Shown here one piece after another: positions 1 to 9,743 of a stretch of DNA of 64,000 bases. The stretch comes from Verrucomicrobiia bacterium (lineage in GTDB: Bacteria > Acidobacteriota > Terriglobia > Bryobacterales > Bryobacteraceae). Every line of letters starts with the position of its first letter. Positions within the stretch are counted from its first letter, which is position 1. The translations under genes were made by a program, and so were the position numbers. The DNA is taken from assembly GCA_035578025.1 (NCBI GenBank), contig DATJYJ010000026.1:6983-70982 (forward strand), written 5' to 3'. Below the pieces are notes generated by a model. The model had not been told where the DNA came from, did no database searches, and worked only from the letters and a program-made list of their open reading frames with translations.

Positions 1-172
1 GGTGGATTTCGGCGGTCTCGCCATACCCTTCCAGCCCGCGAAACACGGTCGCACCGGCGATCTTCAGCTCCTTGCAGCGATCCACGATCGCCTCGTATAA
101 CGGCTTCCCCCGGTATCGATCGCTCTCGCCAAAGTGCAGTCGGAGAAGTTTGGCTTTCCTAACCGTTCGCAT
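1..172 (-). CDS. DUF190 (PF02641-like) domain protein, N-terminal part only; gene runs off the window start
   Basis: Not in the ORF track because it is cut by the window edge. Reverse translation from the ATG at 172-170 gives MRTVRKAKLLRLHFGESDRYRGKPLYEAIVDRCKELKIAGATVFRGLEGYG. This is the same module type as the two repeats of the upstream ORF. Its start overlaps that ORF's stop by 14 nt. Confidence 0.7.
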   Translation of the reverse strand, partial: MRTVRKAKLLRLHFGESDRYRGKPLYEAIVDRCKELKIAGATVFRGLEGYGETAEIH

Positions 173-884
173 TGGAAGCCTCCGTCGAAGATGGGCTGCG
201 GACCAGCCGGATCACGTCCACATCCGAAAGCACGATGATTCCGTCCTGCATCATGGATTCGACCGCCTCGATCGCCTGCTCCAGCTTCTCTCCCTGGTCC
301 ACCACCGAAATCATCACCGGCAGGTCGTGGGAAAAAGGCAACCGGCCGCTCTTGTGCGTATGGCCCTTGACGCCATAACCGAGGACGCCCCGGTAAACCG
401 TGGCGCCGGCGATGTCCATCAGGCGCAAACGCTTCACCACCGCCTCGTACAACGGCTCGCCCTGCCACTTGTCCGACTCGCCCATATAAATGCGCATCAA
501 TCGCGCCGTGCCCTTCAGTTCCGCGTGGGGAGCCTTGGGCGGCGACGGCCGTTCCTTGTTGGCCACCTTGACCACCTGCGTGTCCTGAACTTCGATCACG
601 CCGTCGGTCACCATCTCGTACAGCGTCGGCATCAGGTCGTTCACCTTCTCGGCTGAGTCGATGAACTCGATGCGGACCGGCAGGTGCTCCGTCAGCACCT
701 CGATCTTCGTCGTGTGCATCACCCGGTGCGCCCCGAATCCAGCCATCGCGCGCGTAGCCGTTGCGCCGGCAATGCCCTTGTGGAGCAGGAACGTCAATAC
801 CGCGTCGGTCAGGGAACCAAAATGGTGTTGCGTGTCCTCGTTGACATAGATCGTGACCTTTTTCGCCACCCCCTTCTGAAGCAT
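159..884 (-). CDS. Tandem two-module DUF190 protein (crcB-associated family)
   Basis: ORF 159..986, trimmed to the ATG at 884 (MLQKGVAKKVTIYVNED), which is preceded by GAGAGGAG. Two repeats contain GIAGATATRAMAGFG and DIAGATVYRGVLGYG. It lies 17 nt downstream of crcB. Confidence 0.85.
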   Translation of the reverse strand: MLQKGVAKKVTIYVNEDTQHHFGSLTDAVLTFLLHKGIAGATATRAMAGFGAHRVMHTTKIEVLTEHLPVRIEFIDSAEKVNDLMPTLYEMVTDGVIEVQDTQVVKVANKERPSPPKAPHAELKGTARLMRIYMGESDKWQGEPLYEAVVKRLRLMDIAGATVYRGVLGYGVKGHTHKSGRLPFSHDLPVMISVVDQGEKLEQAIEAVESMMQDGIIVLSDVDVIRLVRSPSSTEASNANG

Positions 885-901: not shown

Positions 902-1318
902 TCACCGCCAGGCCAGCATCGCGCCGAGCCAGACGGCCCCGTATCCTAGAATGACACTCGACACGACATTCAGCGCGCCCCTCCAACGCCCGCCTTCCCG
1001 CACCGTCGTGTACGTTTCCCAGGCAAAGCTGGAAAAAGTGGTGTAGCCGCCCAGAAACCCCACCACCAGGAGCAGCCGCCAGTTCGCATCCGCGTGGAGT
1101 CGCTCCGTCAACATGCTCATCATAAAACCGATCAGGAACGACCCGCTGACGTTGATCGCCAGCGTCCCCAGCGGGAATTTTCCGCCGAATCTCCTCATGA
1201 TCGCCGACGCCGCCACGTACCTCGCCAGCGCTCCCCCGCCGCCCCCCACCACAACCAGAAAATAGCGGATCAATTGCTCCGTCCCCGCACTCTCGCGATC
1301 CGCTCCAGGTCGGCGCAC
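902..1318 (-). CDS. crcB: Fluoride ion channel CrcB/FluC
   Basis: Small four-TM protein with GTLAINVSGSFLIGF and GFLGGYTTFSSF, typical of CrcB. The ATG at 1318 overlaps the upstream gene by 49 nt. An in-frame TTG at 1273 (LIRYFLVVV) would abut the upstream stop, so the start is uncertain. Confidence 0.9.
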   Translation of the reverse strand: MRRPGADRESAGTEQLIRYFLVVVGGGGGALARYVAASAIMRRFGGKFPLGTLAINVSGSFLIGFMMSMLTERLHADANWRLLLVVGFLGGYTTFSSFAWETYTTVREGGRWRGALNVVSSVILGYGAVWLGAMLAWR

Positions 1319-2952
1319 AGCTCCGGAATCATCTCGTCGCGCGAGTTTTCGATGAGTCTCTCAACCGTCGCCATCAGCTCGTCCAGCCGCCGCCGCGCCT
1401 CCTTCTCCACATCCCACAGTGCGCTGTTTACGCTCTCCTCCCACTGGCTGCTCAATCGGCTGATGTTCTGATAGACCGCGCGCGGAATCGTCCGCGCAAA
1501 GTGCCGGCGAACCGTGGATCGGATTCCCCACACCGGCAAAACCGGAGAAAGCAGCTCCCAGTTGCGGTCGAAGATCCGGCCCGCGCGGATGTTTGGCGCC
1601 GCCGGCTCCCGGACTGCGATTTCTGTCTCCGTGGTTCGCAGCGGCACGCCGAACGCCCGCACCGTTCGCTCCGACAAGCGGTCCCGGAACTGTTGCAGCG
1701 CGCGGAAGGCCTGTTTCTGGACGTTGCGCAAGGGCTCGATGAACGCTCCCCGCTCTTCCACCGAAATCTCCGTCAGCTCGTTGCGCAGTGCCGCCGTCAG
1801 CCAGTCCTCAAATGAAGACAGCATTCGCGTGAGGCTTGCGGTCCACTCCGGAAAGTGGTTCTCGAAGTCGCGCCTCAGCGACGCCTCCAGTTCCCCCTGG
1901 TAGGTTTCCAGCCGGTCGCTCACCGCCGGACGGGTCCGGGCCGCGGCGTGCTGCACCACCAGCCGCACTTGCGCCTTCACCTCCTCGACGATTTCCTTCT
2001 CACCCAGCACCTGCTGCTTCAGTTCCTGGCGATCCGATTCGACTGCTTCCGCCGATTTCAGACTCAGGCTCAGATATTCGTTGCAGTCGCGCAGCAGCGT
2101 GTCCGTCTTTCGCGCCACGATGGATTCCCGCTCCCCGGCGAAGCGTTCCAGCGTTCCCCTCAGGAGCGTGGCTTCCAGCGCCTGCCTGAAGTGCTCGAAA
2201 CCCGCCTTCGTCGAGTACGGGAACACTTGCGGCGTCTCGGAGAGACGCTTCGCAAGCTGGGTACTGACGAATTCCACGACCTCGGCCAGCTCCGGACCGC
2301 TGAGCAGGTCCGCCTTCGTCAAGAGCACCGCCACCTTCGGCGTGTACTGATAGAGGCCTCTCAGCAGGTCGATGTCGCGCTGCGACAGCGGCGGGTCCAC
2401 GCTGACCGCGACCAGCGCGAGCCCCACGTTGGGAAGCCAGTTCAACGACGCTTGGGTGTTGTGAGTCAACGCGCTCTCCAACCCCGGCGTATCGACAAAC
2501 TTCAGGCCGCGGAAGCGGCGCAGCTCCGGCAGTCGCACCGAGACGAAATCCACCTGCTTGCTGTTCTCGGGATTTTCCCTTTCGGAGATGTACTCGCCGA
2601 TCTCCGACGGCGGAATCTCCCTGGTCTGCCCGTCCGTGTGCCGCACGCAAGCGCCTTCCCGGTCGCCATACCGGATCTCCGTCACCACTGCCGTGACCGG
2701 CACCACACCCACCGGGAGAATGCTCCGCCCGAAGAGGTCGTTCAGGAAGCTGCTCTTGCCTGCCTTGAACCTGCCCAGCACGGCGACGCTGATTTCCTCC
2801 TGTGCGGCCGCGGCCCTGGCCGTCACCAGCAGGCTGCTCAGCGCGGAAATCTCGTACCGCGCCGCAATTTCGGCAGCCAGTTCGAGCGCGGACTCCGAGC
2901 CGGAAAGGATTTCTTCTGATCGTTGTTGCTGGCCTTCTGTCTTCAGAATCAT
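1270..2952 (-). CDS. Bacterial dynamin-like GTPase (dynamin family large GTPase)
   Basis: P-loop GRFKAGKSSFLN, G3 DTPGLES and G4 LTKADLL, followed by a long helical C-terminal region. The start is set at the ATG at 2952 (MILKTEGQQQ). The ORF-track start at 2997 lies inside the riboswitch aptamer. Confidence 0.85.
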   Translation of the reverse strand: MILKTEGQQQRSEEILSGSESALELAAEIAARYEISALSSLLVTARAAAAQEEISVAVLGRFKAGKSSFLNDLFGRSILPVGVVPVTAVVTEIRYGDREGACVRHTDGQTREIPPSEIGEYISERENPENSKQVDFVSVRLPELRRFRGLKFVDTPGLESALTHNTQASLNWLPNVGLALVAVSVDPPLSQRDIDLLRGLYQYTPKVAVLLTKADLLSGPELAEVVEFVSTQLAKRLSETPQVFPYSTKAGFEHFRQALEATLLRGTLERFAGERESIVARKTDTLLRDCNEYLSLSLKSAEAVESDRQELKQQVLGEKEIVEEVKAQVRLVVQHAAARTRPAVSDRLETYQGELEASLRRDFENHFPEWTASLTRMLSSFEDWLTAALRNELTEISVEERGAFIEPLRNVQKQAFRALQQFRDRLSERTVRAFGVPLRTTETEIAVREPAAPNIRAGRIFDRNWELLSPVLPVWGIRSTVRRHFARTIPRAVYQNISRLSSQWEESVNSALWDVEKEARRRLDELMATVERLIENSRDEMIPELCADLERIARVRGRSN

Positions 2953-3024
2953 AGCTCTCGAGCAGTAGGAGCTATCATTCCTGAGCCGGAGGCCCAAGAC
3001 GGTTGATGGCGGGCTCCATCACCA
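2950..3024 (-). promoter_or_regulatory. Fluoride riboswitch (crcB RNA motif), copy 2, with a start-codon-occluding alternative hairpin
   Basis: The minus-strand RNA reads UGGUG AUGGAGCC CGCCA UCAACCG CUUGGGCC UCC GGCUCAGG AAUGAUAGCUCCUAC (3024->2965). P1 is UGGUG/CGCCA. Loop GGAGC is complementary to the 3' GCUCC (pseudoknot). The alternative hairpin AUAGCUC-N11-GAGCUAU (2975-2951) includes the A and U of the ATG at 2952. Confidence 0.8.
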
Positions 3025-3039
3025 ACGTACTAAAGTCTG

Positions 3040-3045
3040 ATTATA
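3040..3045 (-). promoter_or_regulatory. Candidate -10 hexamer for the riboswitch-2 transcript
   Basis: A perfect TATAAT on the minus strand (attata on plus), 15 nt upstream of riboswitch P1. No convincing -35 was found (best is GGTTTG/TTTGTG). Confidence 0.3.
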
Positions 3046-3088
3046 CTCCCTGGTCAGCCCACAAACCGCTGGCTCCAGACTGATTCCG

Positions 3089-4249
3089 CTACTCCGGGAT
3101 CTTCACGCCCATCTCAGCCAGTTTCTTCCGTGCAAACTCGTTTTTTGAATTCTGCTTCAGCGATAACAGGTAATACCGGACCGCCTCCTTCGTGTCGCCT
3201 CGTTTTTCGTAGGCGCGGGCGAGCGCGTCCAGTTGGTTCCACGAAGGCGGATAGGCTGTGCTGTCGTGAAGCAGGACCCTGGACGCCTCCTCCAAGCGTC
3301 CCGCGCCCACCAGGGCCGCGACCACCAGTGAGACCGTGAACCGCGGCGTGGTGCGCTCCGGATAGCCGAATCTCTTGCCCGACTCGCGAAACCGCCTGTG
3401 AATTGCCTCGATGCCGCCCTGATCGAATATCTCCAGCGGATCAGGCAGGCTCCATTCTTCGAAGATGGTCTCCACGCCGTGATAGATGCTCGGCAGCGGA
3501 ATCGACACGTGATTCTCCCGCGGCATCCAGTCGAACTTCCATCGGAATCCTGCGGGAGTTGACGCGGTGATTGCCGCGTGGCACCGGGCAACCTCGCTCG
3601 GAACCCTGCCCGATAGGTCGGTCGCGGCAATGTAGAGATCTGCCTGGAGAGATCCGCTGTGGGCAAAGAACGATTCGGCCTGCGCGACCACCGCCTGGTT
3701 GTTCCAGTACAGGCTGGGATCGGCGGCAATGTATCCGTTGAACAGCTTTGGCTGTGTGAGCAAGGCATAGACTGCGAACAGCCCGCCGAACGAATGGCCG
3801 GCGAGGAGCCGGTAGGGACGCGTGCGATACGTCCGCTCGACGTACGGGATGAGTTCGCCCCCCACAAATGACAGGAAGGCATCCGCTCCGCCGCTGCCCG
3901 GCGAGAAACGGTTGTCCACCTCGGCAGTCGAGGGTGGCGTCAGATCGTGCGTGCGCTTTTGAGAATCACCGCTGGCGATACCGACCACGATCATCGGGGG
4001 GATCCGGTCGGCCGTAGCCAGAAAATCCACGATCGCCGCCGTGTAGCGGAAATGCGTCTCGCCGTCCAGCAGGTACAGAACGGGATACCGGTCCGTGCCG
4101 GCGTCGTATTCGGCAGGCTTGGAAATGAACAGCCTTCGCGATTCCTTCAGGATCTCGGAGCGAAGTTGAATGGTAGTGCCGATGACGACCGGTTCTGCCT
4201 GAGACTGTGCCCGCGGGGCCAACAGTACGAGCAGGAGAGCAAGGCGCAT
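3089..4249 (-). CDS. Exported alpha/beta-hydrolase of the putative-esterase (enterochelin-esterase/IroE-like) family with a C-terminal TPR-like tail
   Basis: Signal peptide MRLALLLVLLAPRAQSQA. YPVLYLLDG and the nucleophile elbow GHSFGG are present. The C-terminus (ALARAYEKRGDTKEAVRYYLLSLKQN) looks TPR-like. Confidence 0.8.
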   Translation of the reverse strand: MRLALLLVLLAPRAQSQAEPVVIGTTIQLRSEILKESRRLFISKPAEYDAGTDRYPVLYLLDGETHFRYTAAIVDFLATADRIPPMIVVGIASGDSQKRTHDLTPPSTAEVDNRFSPGSGGADAFLSFVGGELIPYVERTYRTRPYRLLAGHSFGGLFAVYALLTQPKLFNGYIAADPSLYWNNQAVVAQAESFFAHSGSLQADLYIAATDLSGRVPSEVARCHAAITASTPAGFRWKFDWMPRENHVSIPLPSIYHGVETIFEEWSLPDPLEIFDQGGIEAIHRRFRESGKRFGYPERTTPRFTVSLVVAALVGAGRLEEASRVLLHDSTAYPPSWNQLDALARAYEKRGDTKEAVRYYLLSLKQNSKNEFARKKLAEMGVKIPE

Positions 4250-4276: not shown

Positions 4277-5077
4277 TCACTCCCTATTGTGCTCCAGTCC
4301 TCCTGAACTGGCGAATTTGATGATCGTGTCGATTCGCAGTGGAGCAAATTTCACATGCCTTCCCGAGACATATTGCGGCTGGCTCGCGAGTCGGCACATT
4401 TCGATGATCTGGCCCGGATTGCCTCCCGCGCTCTCCAGCACTTTTTCCCGGAATTCCGGCAAATCGAGATGCCGCAGCCGGAAATTATCCGCCGCCGTTT
4501 CGAAAAGTTGCCCGGCCTCGCGGCCGTTGAGCCGCGAAACCGTGAGTACCTTCGTGGGATTCCAGAACAGCCTCGCCAGCACGCCCAGGCTCGCCGCGTC
4601 GCGGGAGGTCGCGAACAGCGCCATTCCGGGCGTGTGGTAGATCCGCTGCAGGAACCGGTAGGCGGCGAAACTTCCCCCCGCGATTCCATCGATCACCATC
4701 GCCTGCGGCGCATTCTCGATCGCGCGCCACAACAGGCCCTTCAGGCGAATGCTCCTCTGCGCCCGCAGCCATTCCTCCGAATCGCGGGGAAGTCCGGCGC
4801 GATCGAGGAAATCCCGTTGCTGTGCCGCGATCAGGGCTCGCGCCATCGCCATTAGCAGCGCATGGAGAGTCGGCTCCCAAGCGACGTAAAGAATTTCCGG
4901 CCGCTCCGCCATCGCTTCCCAAAGGAGTCGTGTCTTTCCGCTTCCCGCGGCGCCGAGCACCAGGAGCGGCTCTCGACCGGCCAATGCGCTGCGCAGGCGC
5001 GCGGTCTCCTTGGCCATCCCTACCAGCGCAAATTTCGGATTCATCTGCCTCGCATGGCCGCCCGCGCCCGGCATCAT
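4277..5077 (-). CDS. Compact P-loop AAA ATPase (AAA_16/ORC-like), function unknown
   Basis: Walker A LGAAGSGKTRLL, a Walker-B-like AMVIDGI, and a GGNPGQIIE motif reminiscent of the GNP motif in AAA_16/STAND-type ATPases. The ATG at 5077 is 1 nt from the antiporter stop. An alternative ATG is at 5044. Confidence 0.65.
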   Translation of the reverse strand: MMPGAGGHARQMNPKFALVGMAKETARLRSALAGREPLLVLGAAGSGKTRLLWEAMAERPEILYVAWEPTLHALLMAMARALIAAQQRDFLDRAGLPRDSEEWLRAQRSIRLKGLLWRAIENAPQAMVIDGIAGGSFAAYRFLQRIYHTPGMALFATSRDAASLGVLARLFWNPTKVLTVSRLNGREAGQLFETAADNFRLRHLDLPEFREKVLESAGGNPGQIIEMCRLASQPQYVSGRHVKFAPLRIDTIIKFASSGGLEHNRE

Positions 5078-9659: not shown

Positions 9660-9731
9660 CTCCTTTCGAGTCGTACTCGTAGGAGTCATCTTCCCCGGGG
9701 ATTGGGGCGGTTGACGGTGGACTCCAACACC
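9660..9731 (-). promoter_or_regulatory. Fluoride riboswitch (crcB RNA motif), copy 1, with an SD-occluding alternative hairpin
   Basis: The minus-strand RNA reads GGUG UUGGAGUC CACC GUCAACCG CCCC AAUCCCC GGGG AAGAUGACUCCUAC (9731->9679). P1 is GGUG/CACC. Loop GGAGUC is complementary to the 3' GACUCC. The tail CUCCUA pairs with AGGAG of AAAGGAG in a hairpin spanning 9685-9660. Confidence 0.75.
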
Positions 9732-9743
9732 ACCTTCAAGGCC

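Follow-up and report, generated by a model that had tools for sequence, protein, structure and literature searches.

Fluoride riboswitches of the crcB motif (Rfam RF01734) have been associated with genes for exporters, Na+/H+ antiporters, pyrophosphatase, HAD phosphatases, enolase and formate hydrogen lyase (PMC11139923), and an earlier list contains mutS, K+/Cl- transport and formate hydrogen lyase, to which its supplement adds iscU and GTP cyclohydrolase (PMC2864571). Here, a 64-kb stretch of contig DATJYJ010000026.1 (assembly GCA_035578025.1, Bryobacteraceae, Acidobacteriota; hereafter the window, meaning the whole stretch) is analysed, in which a crcB-motif aptamer stands directly before the gene of a bacterial dynamin-like GTPase. 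The physiological function of bacterial dynamins is a long-standing open question, with a link to envelope stress in a few cases only, and we know of no characterised bacterial dynamin that is regulated by fluoride. The aptamer, two mutually exclusive pairings in the leader, a promoter element, the identities of the genes and an association that extends across the dynamin family are observed here. It is likely that the leader acts as a functional crcB-motif riboswitch with its own promoter, that it works mainly on translation, and that the dynamin is a regular effector of the fluoride response and not a passenger.

Coordinates follow the numbering of the 64-kb window, and all elements of the dynamin unit are read on the minus strand. 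The 136-nucleotide (nt) gap between the stop codon of an upstream esterase/TPR gene (3089) and the ATG of the dynamin gene (2952) houses the promoter hexamer, the aptamer and the alternative hairpin. The elements are as follows.

3040 to 3045, minus strand: -10 promoter hexamer TATAAT, 15 nt upstream of P1
2965 to 3024, minus strand: fluoride (crcB-motif) aptamer core, matching RF01734; the Rfam alignment covers 2959-3032
3007 to 3024, minus strand: P1 stem-loop, UGGUG (3024..3020) with CGCCA (3011..3007), 8-nt loop AUGGAGCC (3019..3012)
3000 to 3005 (CAACCG), minus strand: junction UCAACCG between P1 and P3, as read from the sequence
2979 to 2999, minus strand: P3 hairpin, 2999..2992 with 2986..2979, 8 base pairs (bp) and a 5-nt loop, G3000 and A2978 unpaired at its base
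2965 to 2978, minus strand: 3' tail AUGAUAGCUCCUAC, or AAUGAUAGCUCCUAC if counted from A2979 (2979..2965), which also closes P3
3013 to 3017 with 2968 to 2972, minus strand: pseudoknot of the P1 loop (GGAGC, 3017..3013) with the 3' tail (GCUCC, 2972..2968)
2951 to 2975, minus strand: alternative, putative OFF-state hairpin AUAGCUC-N11-GAGCUAU (AUAGCUC 2975..2969, GAGCUAU 2957..2951)
1270 to 2952, minus strand: bacterial dynamin-like GTPase, 560 amino acids (aa), Pfam Dynamin_N 1.6e-22, start ATG 2952..2950

By comparing this leader with the RF01734 systems of Bacillus cereus crcB and Thermotoga petrophila (PDB 4ENC), a common core can be recognised. The P1 stem with an 8-nt AUGGnGnn loop, the pseudoknot and the AAC junction are shared (PMC2864571, PMC11077080), as are the variable P3, the GAU...CUCCUAC tail, a downstream crcB gene and, as predicted from the sequence, the logic of an ON switch. 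On the other hand, one pseudoknot pair is C-G and not U-A in the window, P3 has 8 bp with a G.A at its base, an A.C mismatch takes the place of the wobble in the B. cereus switch, and the expression platform lacks a terminator and appears to bury the start codon of a first gene that encodes a dynamin-like GTPase. A sensitive RF01734 scan of 2850-3150 (301 nt) gave a match at 3032..2959 with 33.1 bits and E=1.1e-7, and the four orthologous leaders that were checked reach 42.2, 39.2, 36.4 and 35.3 bits, all over the gathering score; both results bear out the crcB-motif assignment made in the preliminary description. The transcription of the leader given there was exact except for one missing U, the true reading being UCAACCG-U-CUUGGGCC. 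Its AUGA is not the consensus AUGA that it was taken for, as the Rfam alignment sets the consensus GAUGACUCCUAC against GAUAGCUCCUAC instead; its P1 with an 8-nt loop of the conserved (A/U)UGGnG type is correct (GGUG/CGCC with the listed loop, whose G positions are invariant), and its AAC-containing junction is present in a conserved column.

In the tail, the GAU (G2976, A2975, U2974) and the UAC (U2967, A2966, C2965) fall in columns that are invariant or nearly so among the local aptamers. A2975, U2974 and U2967 are the equivalents of the conserved A40, U41 and U48, with the roles of the linchpin A40-U48 and of U41 as described (PMC11077080). The Rfam alignment shows the consensus tail GAUGACUCC as GAUAGCUCC in the window copy; this A-to-G change in the tail is offset by a U-to-C change in the loop (GGAGUU to GGAGCC), and the pseudoknot pair is kept. 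The closing G.A of P3 is non-canonical, and the same holds for the canonical second copy of the window at 9740..9673. On the minus strand, GAGCUAUG is found 7 bases 3' of the aptamer tail. The RNA is described as a new sequence subclass within a known riboswitch class. Variant subclasses of other riboswitch families have changed their ligand, and a subclass so distinct in sequence (C-G pseudoknot pair, G.A at the P3 base, long P3) might likewise sense something other than fluoride. This is very improbable here: the differing positions are compensated pairs or belong to the variable hairpin, the loop, the AAC junction and the GAU...UAC tail are intact, and the downstream genes are the textbook fluoride set of crcB, DUF190 and Na+/H+ exchanger.

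The structure of the aptamer is further supported by covariation. The sample consisted of 80 species-level GTDB loci, mostly from metagenome-assembled genomes (MAGs) of Bryobacterales, Terriglobia and Solibacteraceae, with one Pyrinomonadaceae and two Methylomirabilota MAGs. A covariance model, built from 34 local aptamers of three subtypes with the pseudoknot left out, found 111 matches in the 80 loci and the window, the window copy scoring 74.2 bits. Among the 99 best of these 111 matches, on which the covariation statistics rest, 93.8% of the cells are paired, compared with at most 53% when partners are slid; 12 of the 18 pairs show compensatory changes, and the observed covariation values were reached by none of 500 shuffles. 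Pairing reaches 99.2% at the four core pairs of P1, three of which show changes on both sides, and the flanking U3024-A3007 pair is present in 21 of 31 leaders of the window subclass. P3, announced earlier as a variable hairpin, shows compensatory changes at all 8 pairs and carries U-A in the window where most orthologues have C-G. The pseudoknot pairs, left out of the model, are 95.4% paired; pair 16/125 is UA in 49 and CG in 47 of the 99 aptamers, a swap that speaks for the proposed GGAGC/GCUCC pseudoknot. About 30 other species have the same aptamer subtype directly before the orthologous gene, and when 31 leaders of the window subclass are aligned, 92.8% of the aptamer pairs are formed, a share that falls to 52% or less with slid partners. 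In one otherwise normal window-type aptamer (L004 3839-3944), P1 and the AAC junction are separated by an insert of about 40 nt, which is apparently able to form a hairpin.

The region between the aptamer and the start codon has the features of an expression platform. Both A2952 and U2951 of the start ATG (2952..2950) are paired in the alternative helix, which appears in the minimum-free-energy fold of the leader. Since the tail bases 2972..2969 belong to both, the alternative helix and the pseudoknot are mutually exclusive. The idea of a hairpin burying the start codon holds up in the 31 leaders, where the helix is 92.7% paired versus at most 47% with slid partners and covaries at one pair (A-U in 20, G-U in 7, G-C in 4); in about half of the orthologues, it also reaches over a GGAG just 5' of the AUG. 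The contig of the GTDB representative (L001) encodes a protein 100% identical to the dynamin of the window, with a leader that departs from the window sequence in the stretch from aptamer to ATG (ugauagagagcuaug at L001 3288-3300, ugcucgagagcuaug at window 2964-2953); judged from this pair, the loop of the alternative hairpin appears to be free to vary while the stem is kept. No intrinsic terminator (hairpin plus U-tract) was found in 2800-3300, which makes a translational ON switch the preferred reading. A rather improbable alternative is that the element works chiefly at the level of transcription, by way of Rho-dependent termination or RNA stability. Most characterised fluoride riboswitches are transcriptional, blocked translation often sets off Rho termination, and terminator-type platforms with U-tracts precede distant members of the dynamin family; at this locus, however, besides the missing terminator, the conserved alternative helix has its end right at the AUG and, in orthologues, takes in the Shine-Dalgarno-like (SD-like) GGAG. 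As for the promoter, the TATAAT noted 15 nt upstream of P1 is kept as TA[TCA]AAT, 12-18 nt upstream (mode 15), in all 32 orthologous leaders of the window subclass.

Several observations weigh against a translational riboswitch with its own promoter at this position. The window copy is 0.9 bit short of the RF01734 gathering score of 34 bits, and a whole-window Rfam scan at the gathering threshold does not report it, the sole fluoride aptamer reported being that at 9740..9673. Covariation within the narrow subclass is modest, with 4 double-change pairs versus 2.7 in shuffles, and 56 of 500 shuffles equal the observed value. The SD-like GGAG lies merely 2-4 nt from the AUG, and reads GAGAG in the window copy. 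No -35 match was seen, and a sigma-70 two-hexamer scan gave no full promoter, so the promoter is called solely from the conserved -10 hexamer. Finally, the upstream operon stops 136 nt before the dynamin ATG without a terminator, so read-through transcripts are possible.

The shortfall in score deserves closer consideration. In the preliminary description, the lack of an RF01734 match over gathering was to count against the aptamer; formally, the match is 0.9 bit too low, and we judge this no meaningful refutation in view of the E-value and the orthologues that pass. The low score is due to a P3 that exceeds the length in the model and to the compensated pseudoknot pair, which gets no credit in a covariance model. 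The same score could be taken as a sign that the window copy is a decaying relic which no longer switches, the gene being expressed constitutively from the TATAAT promoter, and decayed aptamers do exist before second dynamin paralogues in related genomes. This is highly unlikely for the window copy, which retains every position invariant across the 34 local aptamers together with the full pseudoknot, and which still has crcB and DUF190 downstream, unlike the decayed copies. The dynamin-leader element, so far as its sequence tells, is a true member of the crcB-motif family, and the 0.9 bit is a matter of thresholding.

The first gene under this leader was described as a 560-aa dynamin-family GTPase, and profile and structural matches agree. 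Dynamin_N scores 80.7 bits on the open reading frame (ORF) against a cut-off of 27, and the motifs G1 (GRFKAGKS), G3 (DTPG) and G4 (TKAD) are invariant or nearly so in 22 family members. A family profile matches Campylobacter DLP1 (5owv_C, 1.6e-21), Nostoc BDLP (bacterial dynamin-like protein; 2j68) and IniA (6j72). In the AlphaFold (AF2) model (mean predicted local distance difference test, pLDDT, 75.5), the GTPase domain is followed by long helices at 253-559. Foldseek with this model retrieved BDLP 2j69_A (3.4e-16), IniA 6j73_B (8.7e-15) and 5owv_C (1.9e-11) over about 580-700 aligned columns, with TM-scores (template modelling scores) that are low, 0.29-0.43, so that the exact conformation is not established by the model; such values are expected, because these proteins are hinged and multi-domain. 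A conserved hydrophobic/amphipathic segment, F461-D-R-x-W-E-L-L-S...P473-x-W475, is located between the trunk helices, where the confidence of the model is lower; it is a candidate for the membrane-binding tip (paddle). An NCBIfam search gave no family-level match for the dynamin, the AAA_16 protein or the DUF190 protein of the window. A start at TTG 2997, as in the ORF listing, was dropped: this codon lies within P3, and orthologues keep the start that corresponds to ATG 2952. Taken together, these results place the ORF in the known bacterial dynamin superfamily, as a genuine GTPase of the BDLP class. The ORF has thousands of relatives and belongs to a separate family (about 550 aa; 912 clusters, 50% identity, E<=1e-30), whose members occur in MAGs assigned to Acidobacteriota, Methylomirabilota, Thermodesulfobacteriota (syntrophs) and Bacteroidota.

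The aptamer accompanies this family well beyond the window. A fluoride aptamer lies upstream on the same strand in 70 of the 80 GTDB loci: in 53 it is less than 260 nt upstream of the dynamin gene, and in a further 17 it heads a co-directional operon that ends in the dynamin gene, with the order Na+/H+ exchanger-DUF190-AAA_16-dynamin or crcB-DUF190-dynamin. The other 10 have no aptamer, several of them being at contig ends. Homologues of crcB, DUF190 or the Na+/H+ exchanger occur within 4 kb of the dynamin gene in 55 loci, and just 5 of the 80 have neither an aptamer nor fluoride-type neighbours.

A more distant branch was sampled with 80 metagenomic loci whose proteins are about 30-38% identical to the dynamin of the window; named relatives include MAGs of Thermodesulfobacteriota, Syntrophorhabdaceae, Syntrophus, Desulfomonilia and Bacteroidetes. 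An aptamer is present less than 300 nt upstream in 68 of these loci and further upstream in 4 (72/80 in total), and all 20 loci checked with Rfam lie over gathering, at 41-60 bits. Several inspected leaders of this branch show terminator-like platforms with U-tracts. The neighbours include Na+/H+ exchangers (22/80), MutS_V pairs (7/80) and, in locus L112, an enolase within the dynamin unit. A tblastn search with an acidobacterial CrcB found crcB in one of the 80 loci, a count that probably reflects query divergence and short flanks and from which no conclusion is drawn. Simple synteny within Bryobacterales was considered as a cause of the association and dropped, as the association holds in this branch.

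These data bear directly on the question of whether the dynamin is merely co-regulated, without a role in fluoride tolerance, while crcB/DUF190 are the selected target. In favour of such a passenger, crcB is found within 4 kb in the window and in 28 of the 80 GTDB loci, mostly directly 3' of the dynamin gene. However, the association holds with the dynamin gene first, last, or with an enolase or Na+/H+ exchanger replacing crcB; it holds across aptamer subtypes, with translational and terminator-type platforms, and in MAGs of several phyla. Several units consist of the dynamin gene alone, as in L010, where no recognisable fluoride gene follows it, and the expression platform overlaps the dynamin's own start codon. 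A passenger is therefore unlikely. The link is kept when gene order, aptamer subtype, mode of regulation or phylum changes, which speaks for selection acting on the control of the dynamin itself by fluoride, and, as read from these genomes, the fluoride-riboswitch association is a property of the whole dynamin family and no quirk of the window locus.

A third aptamer subtype, AGCGGUGGAGUUCGCU..ACGCCG..CGGCCAAUGACUCCUAC, heads the Na+/H+ exchanger-DUF190-AAA_16-dynamin operons (L057 812-866, L059 814-868, L067 830-884, L075 873-927, L078 2996-3050 and others), and Rfam does not report the L057 copy even at E<=0.01. Rfam gathering thus misses the window copy and another aptamer subtype, so threshold-based surveys of the fluoride regulon under-count.

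Downstream of the dynamin gene, the genes expected from the preliminary description, crcB and three DUF190 modules, are present, and a second riboswitch unit is found further along the window. These features are as follows.

902 to 1274, minus strand: crcB (Fluc fluoride channel), Pfam CRCB 7.9e-27, start TTG 1274 (overlapping the dynamin stop) or GTG 1318
159 to 884, minus strand: two-module DUF190 protein, Pfam DUF190 2.2e-61 in two stretches
1 to 172, minus strand: third DUF190 ORF, ATG 172 overlapping the preceding stop, extending past the window edge; 53% identity to a DUF190 module by tblastn
9673 to 9740, minus strand: second, canonical fluoride aptamer, RF01734 37.9 bits

The third DUF190 ORF is whole in L001 (6095-6391). 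The unit headed by the second aptamer comprises, as assigned by Pfam, two MutS_V genes, a Na+/H+ exchanger, an AAA_16 gene and the esterase/TPR gene. The tail CUCCU of this aptamer can pair with an AGGAG just 5' of a tiny ORF (AUG CCG UGA), and the first MutS_V gene begins 185 nt beyond this ORF. An AAA_16/STAND-like ATPase of about 220-270 aa adjoins the dynamin gene, usually directly upstream, in the window (4277-5077, minus strand) and in 22 of the 80 GTDB loci, and an ATPase similar to the acidobacterial one occurs in the distant metagenomic locus L112 (8446-9120). It may be a further unrecognised member of the fluoride regulon.

The mechanism of the switch can be proposed as follows; fluoride binding, the direction of switching and translational coupling are inferred from the sequence. 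Without fluoride, the AUAGCUC of the tail would pair with GAGCUAU, and the A and U of the start codon would be buried, in many orthologues together with the SD-like GGAG. Once fluoride and Mg2+ are bound, GCUCC would be captured by the GGAGC of the P1 loop as the pseudoknot, the start region would be freed, and the GTPase would be translated. The start of crcB overlaps the stop of the dynamin gene, and crcB is therefore proposed to be translated by coupling.

By analogy with the stress-linked dynamins IniA and DynA, the protein would most likely use GTP to maintain or repair the cytoplasmic membrane when cells face fluoride and acid stress, and the unit may represent a membrane-remodelling arm of the fluoride response. 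A broader proposal is that the family of about 550 aa is a dedicated fluoride-stress effector, controlled by riboswitches about as consistently as the exporters are, and often present as paired paralogues each with its own riboswitch; this is put forward tentatively, as a possibility that may well turn out either way. Metal-fluoride transition-state analogues classically inhibit P-loop NTPases, and induction of these enzymes might offset the inhibition. More speculatively, the co-regulated P-loop NTPases (dynamin, MutS_V pair and AAA_16) could respond to the poisoning of nucleotide hydrolases by MgFx/AlFx. Many of the dynamin-carrying MAGs were sampled from acidic, Al-rich peat soils, where this idea would be relevant.

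The paralogues of the dynamin add to this picture. A second, divergent paralogue lies on the opposite strand in 15 of the 80 GTDB loci, and in at least 12 of these 15 a canonical fluoride aptamer is found on its strand, in several of them head-to-head with the first. In L010, for example, a divergent 695-aa paralogue (Dynamin_N) has its own canonical aptamer, and the two riboswitches stand head-to-head within about 220 nt (3560-3960); similar double riboswitches were observed in L003, L014, L015, L031, L038, L047 and L052. The opposite-strand aptamers of such loci have their own TTGAC/CATAAT promoter and are 80-130 nt from the aptamer of the window-type dynamin. This arrangement suggests a fluoride-induced dynamin pair. 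The 64-kb window itself contains no second dynamin paralogue.

Other second copies of the dynamin gene keep TATAAT and have mutated aptamers (L012 5790-5853, L026 2542-2605, L030 3826-3889, and L032, L033, L036 and L037 around 3825-3889), with the changes GAU to AGU/GGU, AAC to AGC/GAC and UAC to CGC/UCC; in L035 (about 3860-3900), TATAAT is kept and the aptamer is deleted. The genes flanking the decayed copy of L030, the only such locus examined with Pfam, are unrelated to fluoride. These copies look like a progressive loss of riboswitch control after duplication. Tandem complete fluoride aptamers, 0-1 nt apart, were seen in three independent metagenomic loci (L101 4841-4937, L103 7014-7119, L112 6981-7087); in L112, they follow the enolase and precede two proteins without Pfam matches and the AAA_16 gene. 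We know of no description of tandem fluoride aptamers.

The known fluoride regulon comprises exporters, pH/ion homeostasis and fluoride-inhibited enzymes, and a GTP-driven membrane-remodelling protein would be a new type of defence. Fluoride control of a dynamin suggests that the membrane is among the targets of fluoride damage; if the family is indeed a dedicated effector, fluoride toxicity has an unstudied component of membrane remodelling or repair. Because the family carries a built-in, ligand-defined inducer, the function of these dynamins can be tested directly, by means of NaF, low pH and deletion mutants. The window subclass would in addition be a clean natural case of a fluoride switch that acts on translation and has a compensated pseudoknot. 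Literature searches on dynamin with fluoride riboswitch or crcB found no link, and the 15 top-ranked papers on bacterial dynamin-like proteins and fluoride contained nothing relevant, the gene table of Baker et al. 2012 and its supplement lying outside these searches. Within that literature, with the same exception, the view that a dynamin lead gene is undescribed stands, and the family-wide coupling of dynamin with the fluoride riboswitch appears to be unreported.

Compared with the published fluoride regulon (Fluc/CrcB, CLC-F, MutS-like proteins and others), the window shares crcB, DUF190, the Na+/H+ exchanger and two MutS_V genes; the published lists are without dynamin-family GTPases and without the recurrent AAA_16 ATPase, both of which are present here. 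With Nostoc punctiforme BDLP (2J68/2J69), Campylobacter jejuni DLP1/DLP2 (5OWV) and Mycobacterium smegmatis IniA (6J72), the dynamin of the window shares the N-terminal dynamin GTPase with G1, G3 and G4, and, in its predicted structure, a helical neck and trunk, with the conserved hydrophobic segment FDRNWELLSPVLPVW as a putative tip; the structural matches extend over nearly the full length, and sequence identity to solved structures is 13-18%. The paralogue pairs in the 15 related loci resemble the DLP1/DLP2, LeoB/C and IniA/C pairs. IniA of the mycobacterial iniBAC operon is induced by envelope-damaging stress, Bacillus subtilis DynA is likewise linked to stress, and both are thought to preserve membrane integrity. 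In contrast to iniBAC and DynA, induction here would depend on a defined inorganic ion that an RNA in the leader of the dynamin gene senses directly.

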